Both the position numbers and the translations under genes were made by a program. From positions 1 to 64,000 of the IMG/VR virus record IMGVR_UViG_2724679359_000002: a DNA stretch of 64,000 bases; one strand, written 5' to 3'. This DNA comes from a virus (taxonomy: Duplodnaviria > Caudoviricetes). Positions 29,646 to 33,404 of this stretch are shown here, in pieces (position 1 is the first letter of the stretch; each line of letters starts with the position of its first letter). The notes under the pieces are model-generated. The model made no database searches. It saw only the letters and a program-made list of their open reading frames with translations, and was not told the DNA's origin.

Positions 29646-32250
29646 GGTTTGCTCCCTCTCGTAATTTTGCCACGCGGCTCATGACGCTAAATACCCGCTG
29701 GGCGGTGGTTGGTTGGCACTGGTACAAACAATAATCCTCTCTTGCCCGCCAGTTCTGGCCGCCGATGGTCAACGTTGCGCCACAAGCCAGTGATTGCGCT
29801 TGCTGTTTGCTGATGGAAAGCCCGATTGACTCGGCAAAATCGCGGATTTTTGTTGTCACTGGTGCCAGTTGTACGGTTTTTTCTTGCCGCTGGACGGCCT
29901 TTTCGGCTGATACCTGGCGTGATAACTCCTCGGCTGGCGTCAATGGATTAGTTTTAATCGTTGCTACCGGCGCGTTTTTAATCCTGCGCAATAAGGCCCG
30001 GCGTTCTGCATCGGTGAGTGCGGTGAAATCGATTATTTTTTCTTCTAATATTCTGTCTATGGCCTCCTCCGGTTCGCGTATTTTTTGCTCTACCGGAGAG
30101 TTATTGACAGAACTCCAAGGGACGGCGGGGCCGTCCTGAAAAACATCAACCCCCACGGCAACGGCGGGTTTCGCCTTTTTACGGGCGACAATCTTCCAGC
30201 TTTTTAGACGGGTGCATATGCGCGACGCCTCGCCCAAAAGCGGGGAATAGATGCCGTAAATCTTCTCGGTGGTTTCGCCGTAGGCGTTGGGCTGCTCGTT
30301 GTCCTGATAGGCGATACGCACGGTGTATTCTTCGCGGGGGATTAAGACGCCACCCTGTTGCATGATGTAAGTAGCAAAACAACTGACATCAGCCGCCGAC
30401 ATAACCGCATCCATAGCCGGATCAAGTAATAGCTTTTTCCCTCGCATTGCAGCCACTTTCGCTGCAATGTCTGCGGGGTCAGTTTCTTCATCAATCAGGT
30501 GCTGTATGGCTAACTTAAATTCATCTGATTTAATCAGGTCATTGAGTAGCTTGTTATTCAGCTTGCGCAGCTCTCGCCAGACAGTCACCGGCGGGGTGCC
30601 TATTGGCTGATATTGGCGGATTCGGTGGCGTGATGCCCAGGCCATAGCAAAGCGGGCCGTCTCTTTCATCGGCTTGCCGGTTTCATTGTCTAATTCGCCA
30701 TCCAGCGCGTAACCATCAATATTTTTACTGATGTATTTAGCAATATAGGCGGTGGCGCTGCCTTTCTTCGGATCCAGCCGCTTGGCGGTAAACCGGGCGC
30801 TGGTGCGCTTACCTAATTCTGCACGATCCTCTTTTACGGCATAGGTGCGTATGATCTCAGTGATGGCGTGGCATTCTTGCGGTTTCATGAATAACAGTAA
30901 GTGCCAGTGCGGCGTACTGTCATGATGCGGCTCAGCGACACGAAAACCGTAGACGCGCAGATTTTCACGGCCCAGTTTGGAAGTAATGTTGCGCCATAAC
31001 TTGGTGAGATAGGCTTGCGCTTGTGGTGGCGTGGTGTAGTTCCATTTTGGGTTAGCGTGGCCGCTTTGGTTGTTAGCGTGATTTTTGGATGGGCAAGTAA
31101 TGGTATAGAACATGCCCACATCATCACGCGACTGAGCGACCAGTTCGATCCCTTTCATGCGCGCCATCAACTCATGGCGGCGAATAGTCGGATTACTGAT
31201 ACTGGCGTCCACCATTGCCTCTAAAGAAACGGTGTTGCCCTCATCATCAACTAATTCATGTCGCTTGAAGAATTCACGGTTGCGGCGCTTTTGCTCCATC
31301 CAGTCGGCCAGCGCTTCTTTGCTGATGTAAGGTGCGGCACGCTTATGGATCAAGCCAGCGGCGCGCAACTGGCTTTCTCGCCAATCATTACGCAGCCGCC
31401 ACAATTTACTCTCCCACCAATCCGCATTAATCAGTCGGGCAATAGCAGAATGATAAACTGCACGATCCACTGGTTCATCTGGTTGGTTGGGCTTCGGCCC
31501 CAGCTCGCGCCAGTGCGGTGGCTTGACCCGTAAAGATCGCACTTCAAGCGCAATATTGCGATAAATGGTTAATAACTCGGCATCAGATAAGGTGCGGGTT
31601 TCGTCGGTGGGTGTTGATACCTCAGTGCAAAACATTTCATTAATGCGGCCAGCAACATCATTCGCCAGCGACTTAACCCGGCGCTTGTTTAGCTCGGCAA
31701 GGTGGCTGTAAATCCCCTGAAAATAAGCCATTAACTCAGATTTGCGGCCCTTGCTCACTCCCTGATATTCGCGCACAGCATCCAGACGTAACAATGCATT
31801 CTTGCCGGTGCCGGTTAAGAATGCATTGGTATGTTTATCGCCATGGTTTTCACGTAACCATCTAATTTTATTTTGAAAGTGTGACTTAATAAAAATAGGC
31901 TGCTGATCAATGCGGGCCTCGACACCTTGCGGTGAATCAGCCCATTGCTGTTTCTCACGCAAATAGACTTGGCGCTCAAGCTCGGCGCGTTCCCTGCGCA
32001 TTTTAAGTAAGGTTTGATTAGGCTCGCGTAATTCGGTATATCCCAATGCATTCAGGCGTTTCACATAGCGAATAACCAGCGGGTGAGATTTTGGTTTTGC
32101 TACCACTGCGACCGGTGCTAAAGATTGGTAGCCACCAATGGCAGGGCGCGGGGCATTCCATGAGTGCTCCCATTCAATAGAAACATCACCGCTGCCCGGA
32201 TAAGGCAGCGGTGGTACTGGGGTGATGCGGCTTCGTGAATGCTCGGTCAT
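29626..32250 (-). CDS. A: Rolling-circle replication initiator gpA
   Basis: TITCPSK, EPHHDSTPHWHLL (HUH motif), YIAKYISKNIDG. Confidence 0.95.
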   Translation of the reverse strand: MTEHSRSRITPVPPLPYPGSGDVSIEWEHSWNAPRPAIGGYQSLAPVAVVAKPKSHPLVIRYVKRLNALGYTELREPNQTLLKMRRERAELERQVYLREKQQWADSPQGVEARIDQQPIFIKSHFQNKIRWLRENHGDKHTNAFLTGTGKNALLRLDAVREYQGVSKGRKSELMAYFQGIYSHLAELNKRRVKSLANDVAGRINEMFCTEVSTPTDETRTLSDAELLTIYRNIALEVRSLRVKPPHWRELGPKPNQPDEPVDRAVYHSAIARLINADWWESKLWRLRNDWRESQLRAAGLIHKRAAPYISKEALADWMEQKRRNREFFKRHELVDDEGNTVSLEAMVDASISNPTIRRHELMARMKGIELVAQSRDDVGMFYTITCPSKNHANNQSGHANPKWNYTTPPQAQAYLTKLWRNITSKLGRENLRVYGFRVAEPHHDSTPHWHLLLFMKPQECHAITEIIRTYAVKEDRAELGKRTSARFTAKRLDPKKGSATAYIAKYISKNIDGYALDGELDNETGKPMKETARFAMAWASRHRIRQYQPIGTPPVTVWRELRKLNNKLLNDLIKSDEFKLAIQHLIDEETDPADIAAKVAAMRGKKLLLDPAMDAVMSAADVSCFATYIMQQGGVLIPREEYTVRIAYQDNEQPNAYGETTEKIYGIYSPLLGEASRICTRLKSWKIVARKKAKPAVAVGVDVFQDGPAVPWSSVNNSPVEQKIREPEEAIDRILEEKIIDFTALTDAERRALLRRIKNAPVATIKTNPLTPAEELSRQVSAEKAVQRQEKTVQLAPVTTKIRDFAESIGLSISKQQAQSLACGATLTIGGQNWRAREDYCLYQCQPTTAQRVFSVMSRVAKLREGANRESHPH
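30100..30126 (-). other. P2-type replication origin inside A
   Basis: GCCGTCCCTTGGAGTTCTGTCAATAAC, a variant of the P2 ori GCGCCTCGGAGTCCTGTCAATAAC. Confidence 0.7.
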
Positions 32251-33404
32251 TCAGTGACGCCAGCCAGATCAATAGCTATCCACAGGGGCGTGGCTAAATA
32301 TGCCCTAATGAATGCTTCTGTCGTCGGAGCATTAATGGCGTTTCCGTAGGCGCGCAGTCGTCCCACGCGATTGGTAATCCCATCAACCAACGGGAATGTG
32401 CCGGATTCAGCTGGCCGCCACTTTCCATCCCTGCACAGGAGCCAGTCAGCATCTCGCCAGAAGCCATTAACCGCGCCGCCTGATGCAACGGAAGATGGTC
32501 TCGGCTCCCAATTGAATTGATCACTACTGTCGTGAGGCTTTCCTGAGTTCCTTTCTTGCCCGTGTTCCGGTTCTGATACCCCAGTCGGGCCTCTGTTGCT
32601 AACGGTGTCGGCCATCCCGCTAAAAGAACCTGCCCGTTCAATGTCATGCCGCCCTGCCTCAACGGCGGTGTCTTGCTGCCTTTCCCATTTCCCGCTGTTG
32701 GCGTTGTCCATCCCGACAAGGTAGCTGCTAGCGTTAAAGGCATTCCACCCTGCGCATAGGGCTTCGTTCGTTGGGCTGTATCGCAAGTCGGTGTCGGCCA
32801 GCCCGCTATGGCTGACGCATTCGCCAGCGTGTCCGTGAAATTCCCTTTCCGCATTTGTCTGCCCAACCCCGACACCCCCTTGTAATCTCTGGTCGTCGGT
32901 GTCGGCCACCCAGAAGAGGCGCTGCCTGATGTTCGGCGCACCGAAGCCCGCAGCGCAAAGATCGACCGCTGTTGGGGAGTAATTCGCACTTTCCAAGTCA
33001 GCTTGTACAAGGTCGAGCCATGTAAGGCCGTCTTTGCTTGCAACCTGCTCACCAAAAATTGTTGGTGGCCGGCGCTGTTGGATGAGGTGAAAGAATGCGG
33101 GCCACAGGTGCCGCTCATCATCAAACCCGCCGCCTTTGCCTGCCGCGCTGAAAGGCTGGCAAGGGCAAGAGCCTGTCCAAACTGGCTCGTCGTCAGGCCA
33201 TCCAGCTTGTCGCAAGGCATATGACCAGACGCCGATTCCTGCAAAGAAATGGCACTGAGTGAATTCTCGTAAGTCGTCGGGTTTGACATCTTCAATACTC
33301 CGCTCATCAACATAGCCGGGGGCAATATGACCGGCTTTAATAAGGTTTCTCAGCCACTGGGCTGCATAGGGATCAATCTCGTTGTAATAGGCGTTTGTGG
33401 TCAT
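32247..33404 (-). CDS. C5 cytosine DNA methyltransferase, catalytic (alpha) chain
   Basis: FFAGIG (motif I), GSCPCQPFS (IV), GEQV (VI), [10 protein letters not shown] (VIII), LRAYGNAI (X); no motif IX in this frame. Confidence 0.9.
32294..33325 (-). CDS. Nested +1-frame methyltransferase beta chain with motif IX and four TRD-like repeats
   Basis: 343 open codons inside the MTase gene; [14 protein letters not shown] (motif IX); GW(P/T)TP x4; candidate start 33289 with GGAG SD. Confidence 0.75.

Follow-up and report, generated by a model that had tools for sequence, protein, structure and literature searches.

What do four short repeats in the second reading frame of a phage methylase gene encode, and is that frame a gene at all? 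The question arises in a 64,000-nucleotide stretch of Caudoviricetes DNA (hereafter the window; positions 1 to 64,000 of IMG/VR record IMGVR_UViG_2724679359_000002), whose source record is a P2-like provirus of 72,397 bases. Here the minus strand holds an open reading frame (ORF) of 385 residues for a C5 DNA methyltransferase (gene A, frame A), and within it, in the +1 frame of gene A, lies a nested ORF at 32294..33325 on the same strand, 343 residues long when counted from a TTG (frame B). Working from the letters alone, an earlier annotation, which we call the sequence-only reading, had described in frame B a tandem array of four units resembling target-recognition domains (TRDs). We found that selection passes from the methylase frame to frame B exactly over these units, and judged by its pattern of variation frame B is a real coding frame, that is, a gene. 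The explanation that we place first, tentatively and at a little under an even chance, is that the units form the cassette region of a DNA cytosine methylase encoded by two genes at one locus, in which B is a recognition chain with exchangeable DNA-reading cassettes. The two genes and the start signal of the nested one are as follows.

Gene A, 32247..33404, minus strand: catalytic chain, with motifs I, IV, VI and VIII in its N part, a GNAI motif-X-like end, and a spacer at residues 166-319.
Gene B, 32294..33289, minus strand: nested +1-frame gene of 331 residues plus stop (protein P0132), the proposed DNA-recognition chain.
Shine-Dalgarno-like GGAG, 33298..33301, minus strand: 8 nucleotides before the ATG of B (33289-33287), inside Arg-Ser codons of A.

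To ask whether frame B is more than chance, we used 80 viral loci fetched by main-frame homology alone together with two phage records, giving 82 loci. Both frames were open in the window and in 81 of the 82 related loci, and in these 81 the layout was kept, with gene B lying wholly inside gene A on the same strand. Across the window and 75 of the loci, the +1 frame ran free of stops for 265-428 residues and the +2 frame for merely 36-118; six further loci outside that count had both frames open too. Since the +1 frame is open and the +2 frame short among the relatives, frame B is more than a chance opening. Controls on codon usage pointed the same way. Frame A was open across the cassettes in all 40 non-redundant genes, against 2.1 expected when B codons were permuted, and frame B was open over its first 85 codons in 39 of the 40, against 11.4 expected when A codons were resampled synonymously.

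The sole broken locus belongs to Pseudomonas phage PACT201 (PP931175.1, about 1500-2750), where both frames are interrupted at several places and the annotation lists a short 'DNA methyltransferase' and, antisense, a hypothetical protein. Being broken, this locus was excluded from the selection tests.

The distribution of variation among codon positions was compared in 27 independent pairs of genes at 80-98.5% identity. In the N part, position 3 of the A codons was the most variable (0.116 vs 0.052 and 0.024), whereas in the cassette region it was position 3 of the B codons (0.166 vs 0.071 and 0.047). Within the cassette region, changes that were silent in A and altered B were depleted 0.49-fold, and the converse changes were enriched 2.10-fold. 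The C part was constrained in both frames (0.064, 0.018 and 0.065). Another 39 pairs at 70-80% identity gave the same codon-position pattern. A sliding map of the constraint along gene A, in which the first 45-50 residues of B were unconstrained, resolved the alternation as follows.

A residues 4-87: A-like.
A residues 88-123: mixed.
A residues 124-147: B-like, within the core region of B.
A residues 154-165 (motif VIII): A-like.
A residues 166-319: B-like.
A residues 320-331: both.
A residues 326-349: B-like, with the strongest B-frame constraint.
A residues 347-373 (GNAI, motif X): A-like.

The start of gene B was also conserved. Its ATG is formed within Asp-Val codons of A (GAT GTN), and among 73 distinct genes GGAG and ATG were both present in 63, only the ATG in 3, and neither in 7. 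The Arg-Ser pair of A was coded NGG AGY in 63 of the 73 genes, a spelling that just 4 of the 36 possible codon pairs give. The start of B is therefore kept through synonymous choice in the A frame, and B has a start of its own. Given the conserved GGAG and ATG, we set gene B at 33289-32294, 331 residues, in place of the longer ORF from TTG. The 7 genes without GGAG were also those without the ATG of the usual start (the loci concerned include L006, L010, L011 and L047), and in five loci (L006, L010, L011, L047 and L071) frame B had no stop before the end of gene A. Such genes must start, and perhaps end, B differently.

Relatives of B were abundant. The protein matched phrog_31772 (E 3e-39) and phrog_1008 (E 7.5e-34), both labelled DNA methyltransferase, and 7457 of 8000 scored candidates were homologues at E<=1e-3. 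The family counted 20,969 representative clusters at this threshold and 8,096 at E<=1e-30. No Pfam domain was present in any of the 120 B matches listed. In Xanthomonas phage PhiXhv-18 (PV764600.1, 1496-2488) both frames are annotated as 'DNA methyltransferase' (XYR92585.1 and XYR92586.1), so the nested gene is already recognised by one annotation pipeline or more.

With the frame established, we turned to the four units. Translation of the ORF bore out the sequence-only reading in its description of them: they start GWPTPT, GWPTPT, GWTTPT and GWPTPL, with Trp at residues 140, 176, 206 and 238 counted from the TTG, which become 128, 164, 194 and 226 from the conserved ATG at 33289 (P0132), and with spacings of 36, 30 and 32 residues, or 108, 90 and 96 nucleotides. 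The units span 32480-32911, slightly beyond the limits first proposed, and belong to four different types (F-U-O-B), each with relatives at other positions and in other company.

Cassette 1, type F, 32804..32911, minus strand: B residues 127-162; relatives 63-70% identical in the body, at positions 1 of 2, 1 of 3 and 3 of 5.
Cassette 2, type U, 32714..32803, minus strand: B residues 163-192; relatives 52-56% identical, at position 3 of 4 or 3 of 6.
Cassette 3, type O, 32618..32713, minus strand: B residues 193-224; GWTTP, with a diverged DNA anchor; relatives 42-50% identical, at positions 1, 2 or 3.
Cassette 4, type B, 32480..32617, minus strand: B residues 225-270; the longer terminal type; relatives 78-80% identical.
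DNA anchor GTGTCGGCCANCC, 32605..32617, plus strand: start of cassette 4, with further exact copies at 32791-32803 and 32899-32911.

The anchor had exactly three exact copies in the window, all within the unit region. The claim of conserved DNA anchors thus held for three units, the anchor of the third having diverged, and the main frame does read the anchors as ADT/DN, as had been proposed. When up to 2 mismatches were allowed, 10 matches were found where 4.48 were expected, and a total of 10 was also reached in 1 of 100 shuffles, so just the exact copies are telling. The four unit bodies were mutually 5-31% identical, and Tandem Repeats Finder reported no DNA tandem repeat in 32300-33100. 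We read the units as a repeated short motif with different bodies rather than as a recent duplication.

Across the homologues, 613 units were cut at the W.TP anchors in 187 of 191 distinct B proteins; the other 4 lacked a recognisable anchor or C motif and were not counted, and 25 pattern matches in the N part, labelled type E, were set aside as pseudo-units. The cassette consensus was G-W-P-T-P-x-(A/T)-x-D-x-(K/R)-G-G, then a variable Gly-rich basic stretch, then (T/N)-L-x-x-A-A-x-(L/M)-(A/S), with a median length of 36 residues. The cassettes formed discrete types, with 141 clusters at the chosen threshold, 69 of them singletons. Proteins with 1 to 7 cassettes numbered 8, 40, 65, 48, 20, 4 and 2, respectively, and a 627-residue relative, read by eye, held about eleven. 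There were 142 architectures among the 187 proteins, and just 2 of the 187 carried one type twice. Of its 51 occurrences, type A opened the array in 49; type B closed it in all 45 of its own, and type I was a closing type too, with the remaining types in varied positions. The sequence-only reading had proposed to compare module number, order and identity among homologues, and had named an invariant number as one finding that would speak against it. All three vary, and the comparison leaves the cassette idea unrefuted.

In five example pairs, near-identical genes differed by one whole cassette, with flanks identical at 99.4-100% in the N part and 97.1-100% in the C part. Their architectures were as follows.

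L017/L031: AHI and AHLI.
L015/L029: AHKS and AKS.
L026/L034: AKYC and AKC.
L065/L076: AKC and AYC.
L046/L053: AH and AI.

Whole units are thus gained, lost and swapped between genes with near-identical flanks, and to this extent the proposed exchangeable array stands. Its other part, free shuffling of the order, found weak support, both orders being seen for 17 of 213 type pairs. Among cassettes of one type, conservation was about that of the catalytic N part. We reject the idea that distant backbones have recently exchanged cassettes horizontally: over 1,627 same-type pairs, cassette identity tracked backbone identity and was slightly lower, e.g. 0.809 vs 0.831. By these comparisons the cassettes are old conserved units and not recent imports, and their turnover looks like gain and loss rather than free shuffling.

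What, then, does gene A provide? It matched PF00145 in Pfam (E 6.3e-14; 52.6 bits vs a cut-off of 22), the match being confined to residues 77-177 and to profile positions 66-169 of 324, and it matched phrog_363 (E 2.4e-90). The A-family profile matched M.HhaI over motifs IV-VIII (E 2.6e-15), and a Foldseek search with the AlphaFold2 (AF2) model of A gave M.HhaI as the best match (E 1.4e-8). Motifs I, IV, VI and VIII were visible both in the family alignment and in the M.HhaI match; motif X (YGNAI) was read by eye, in a region under A-frame selection. In the AF2 model the N part had a predicted local distance difference test (pLDDT) score of 75-90 and the C-terminal helix was folded, whereas residues 174-314 scored below 50. 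Between motifs VIII and X of chain A we found no folded TRD and no motif IX, residues 174-314 being without A-frame constraint as well, and the Pfam and NCBIfam matches fell in the N half of A only, with none over these residues. The stretch in question is the spacer.

Spacer of A, residues 166-319, 32448..32909, minus strand: main-frame reading of the cassettes; weakly constrained, predicted disordered, always open.

The A-frame reading of the cassettes is a poorly constrained linker that is nevertheless kept open, much as the sequence-only reading had supposed in saying that the overlapping frame tolerates the units as linker. That A is predicted to have no conserved or folded TRD region where B is under selection supports a division of the enzyme between the two chains. 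Two parts of B besides the cassettes bear on this.

Core of B, residues 70-120, 32930..33082, minus strand: helix plus beta-hairpin, AF2 pLDDT 79-90; near-invariant columns; overlaps folded A residues of about 108-158.
C part of B, residues 271-331, 32297..32479, minus strand: motif-IX-like stretch at 32357-32410; near-invariant columns.

The core was the only part of B that AF2 modelled confidently. Over about 150 nucleotides (32930-33082) both frames have confidently predicted folded segments, residues 108-158 or so of A having pLDDT 71-90 except for one block at 56. The motif-IX-like stretch of B, whose likeness to motif IX was judged by eye alone, adjoins motif X and lies just upstream of it. 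Along the locus, the constrained segments are arranged as in a one-chain C5 methylase: motifs I-VIII (A), variable region (B), IX-like stretch (B) and motif X (A).

We favour a two-chain enzyme because the constrained segments keep this one-chain order and because M.EcoHK31I sets a precedent for it. Frame A would give the catalytic large-domain chain, with motifs I-VIII, a long spacer and the motif-X-like end. Frame B, initiating at its own GGAG/ATG about 115 nucleotides downstream of the start of A, would give the partner chain: 45-50 unconstrained N-terminal residues, the helix-hairpin core, then the cassette array and the motif-IX-like C end. Each cassette has a GWPTPxAxD start, a variable basic Gly-rich loop and a (T/N)LxxxAxLA end. 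B would dock on A through its core and C end and so supply the small domain, the cassettes would serve as separate exchangeable DNA-reading heads in the TRD slot, and the set of targets would depend on the cassettes present, so that gain or loss at the conserved anchors would retune the enzyme. In this scheme we infer that B is translated, that A and B bind each other, that the cassettes contact DNA and that each has a target of its own. The four units of the window are protein cassettes of four different types, exchangeable and probably DNA-reading, and it is plausible that each confers its own methylation target.

The layout has a known counterpart. M.EcoHK31I of Escherichia coli, which recognises YGGCCR, is described in PMC2836561 and PMC3404938, both on the basis of Lee, Kam and Shaw (1995), as a two-chain C5 methyltransferase of which both chains are needed; its beta chain, which carries motif IX, has its whole coding sequence within the alpha gene, in a different frame. 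According to PMC3404938, the small domain, that is, the variable region plus motif IX, makes all the specific DNA contacts. By these descriptions, the present locus is like M.EcoHK31I in that the gene for the small chain is fully nested in that for the large chain in another frame, and in that the large chain has motifs I-VIII and X (here I, IV, VI and VIII aligned, X by eye). The first residues of the M.EcoHK31I small chain are reported to be dispensable, and the first 45-50 residues of B are unconstrained. It differs in that M.EcoHK31I has one target and a TRD predicted in alpha, whereas here the region between VIII and X is selected in the nested frame and holds 1-7 exchangeable cassettes. 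This likeness is one of layout, compared by description. On that analogy M.EcoHK31I is the closest known system, and the nested two-chain layout is already known from it.

The temperate Bacillus phage enzymes M.SPRI, M.Phi3TI, M.H2I and M.SPBetaI are described in PMC8936443 as multispecific C5 methyltransferases with tandem units in one chain, each with a measured target. Like them, by that account, the present locus has phage-borne tandem small units in the slot between the catalytic motifs and motif IX, and their number and kind differ among relatives (here 1-7, and 142 architectures in 187). Unlike theirs, the units here lie in a nested second chain, in the +1 frame with its own start, and are smaller (median 36 residues) with a common GWPTP start. 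The sequence-only reading had likened the units to the tandem TRDs that the Bacillus enzymes carry between motifs VIII and IX; those lie within a single chain, but the units here sit in a separate nested protein, and no likeness in sequence was detected in the comparison with M.SPBetaI or in the search against PF00145 (see below). We regard the resemblance to those enzymes as one of function and layout only. A further comparison is M.AquI (CYCGRG), presented in PMC3404938 as a two-chain C5 methyltransferase whose small chain holds the distal variable region with motifs IX and X. Going by that description, M.AquI, like the system proposed here, is a C5 methylase naturally divided inside the variable region; here, however, the catalytic chain retains motif X and the other gene lies entirely within the first. 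Our literature search, which did not cover supplementary files (these might hold specificities, e.g. those of PMC11954522), found no paper on a nested gene or cassette array of this phage methylase family, and no methylome data on cassette targets were found in the papers searched. As far as its text was consulted, the Edwardsiella phage eiAU paper (PMC3025963) merely predicts a methylase.

Several observations weigh against a recognition role for B. None of 80 B members matched PF00145 in Pfam, and no match was found in NCBIfam. Against PDB sequences, B gave none as a single sequence and only a chance match as a profile (E 1.2). Alignment of the B profile to M.SPBetaI with hhalign, in which the template was a single sequence, gave a probability of 0.15. 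A fold search with the B model by VIA-align against 48,161 chains reached a best Z of 3.9 on a 50-residue helix-hairpin, which we deemed meaningless, and the ESM Atlas had no usable match for B among its named clusters. By these searches no family or solved structure resembles B, and no similarity in sequence could be detected between B and the TRD or motif IX of any C5 methylase. The cassettes were modelled by AF2 with pLDDT of about 50, with a short helix in each. PMC3404938 assigns the TRD of M.EcoHK31I, as a prediction, to alpha and not to beta. The mostly colinear order of the cassettes and the fixed end positions of types A, B and I fit a partly structural role, and in 4 of 11 longer matches B-like chains were fused in frame to other domains (PF01555, PF12705/PF10926 and PF00476).

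In its fullest form, the favoured explanation makes each cassette an independent mini TRD, so that the nested chain renders the phage methylase multispecific and its repertoire is rewritten by gain, loss or swap of single cassettes at the GWPTP anchors. Such a device, combinatorial and directed against restriction, would be encoded in the shadow frame of the catalytic subunit itself and would occur in phage and prophage genes by the many thousands. We consider this possible, at roughly one chance in three. Its closest competitor keeps B as the partner of the methylase and denies the cassettes individual targets: they would act jointly, or as generic basic DNA-binding or spacer arms, with a single specificity lying elsewhere, in the last cassette, the C part of B or the conserved hairpin of A. 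The fixed end types, the colinear order, the single frame motif and the basic, Gly-rich make-up common to all cassettes, their low pLDDT and the one specificity reported for M.EcoHK31I would all suit it. Generic arms, however, would not readily account for types that are discrete and conserved like the catalytic domain, for the duplication of a type in so few proteins when duplication is an easy way to add arms, or for single cassettes that come and go in otherwise identical genes. Independent heads are favoured over such arms because one cassette is enough in 8 proteins, because single cassettes turn over in otherwise identical genes and because types are almost never duplicated. We thus hold the joint or generic role to be doubtful, yet a serious candidate.

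A different proposal takes B as an independent protein, DNA-binding, regulatory or counter-defensive, that merely shares DNA with a methylase working alone. The absence of detectable homology to methylase parts speaks for it, as do the unrelated domains joined to B-like chains in the longer matches, which could mean that B serves more than C5 methylases or could reflect gene-calling read-through. We regard an independent B as improbable, as A shows neither fold nor conservation where a TRD and motif IX belong, the constrained segments of B interleave with those of A in the order VIII, variable region, IX-like, X, and M.EcoHK31I, as described, offers a precedent for a nested partner chain.

Four fused proteins deserve description. 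P0123 (877 residues) has two tandem B-like units followed in frame by a PF01555 N4/N6 methylase. An LNP..W motif ahead of the PF01555 domain was found in 0 of 80 viral loci related to P0123, so the fusion is either rare or a product of gene-calling read-through. In P0127, P0129 and P0130, B-like chains run in frame into a Cys/His-rich HNH-like tail (by eye), PF12705/PF10926 and a PF00476 DNA polymerase A, respectively; these fusions may be lost stop codons of the nested gene, reading into the next gene.

Far less probable still is a single protein made by ribosomal frameshifting from A to B after motif VIII, and perhaps back, to give a one-chain enzyme with an in-frame cassette array. Splicing the alternately constrained frames would indeed yield the canonical order of I-VIII, variable region, IX and X. 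Against this, both frames are open end to end, although frameshifting would not need them outside the parts used; B has its own conserved GGAG/ATG; B-frame constraint is already present upstream of motif VIII; and no slippery run was seen at the junction by eye, without a formal scan. Finally, it is hardly credible that frame B is untranslated and owes its openness and motifs merely to constraints acting on the methylase frame or on the DNA, for although RefSeq annotates the methylase frame alone in the E. coli and plasmid matches seen, variation of the third-position type follows frame B over the cassettes and C part, stops are avoided far above the controls and the start signals are conserved.

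As for the genomic setting, gene A lies in an early/replication operon in the order RNase_T-type exonuclease, D12 Dam methylase, gene A and replication protein GPA. By ORF coordinates, gene A shares 4 nucleotides with each neighbour in an ATGA-type overlap: its start with the stop of the Dam gene at 33401-33404, and its stop with the start of the GPA gene at 32247-32250. Such overlaps suggest translational coupling along the exonuclease, Dam, the C5 methylase and replication protein A.

The locus offers a clean example of long dual coding on one strand: over a single stretch of 1.1 kilobases, selection moves back and forth between two frames. If the favoured explanation is true, phage and prophage cytosine methylases of a very large family are being annotated, routinely and wrongly, as single genes, and annotation misses the part that selects the DNA target. 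The array would then be a compact natural system for changing methylation specificity, with relevance to phage escape from restriction, to methylome prediction and to the engineering of targeted methylases.

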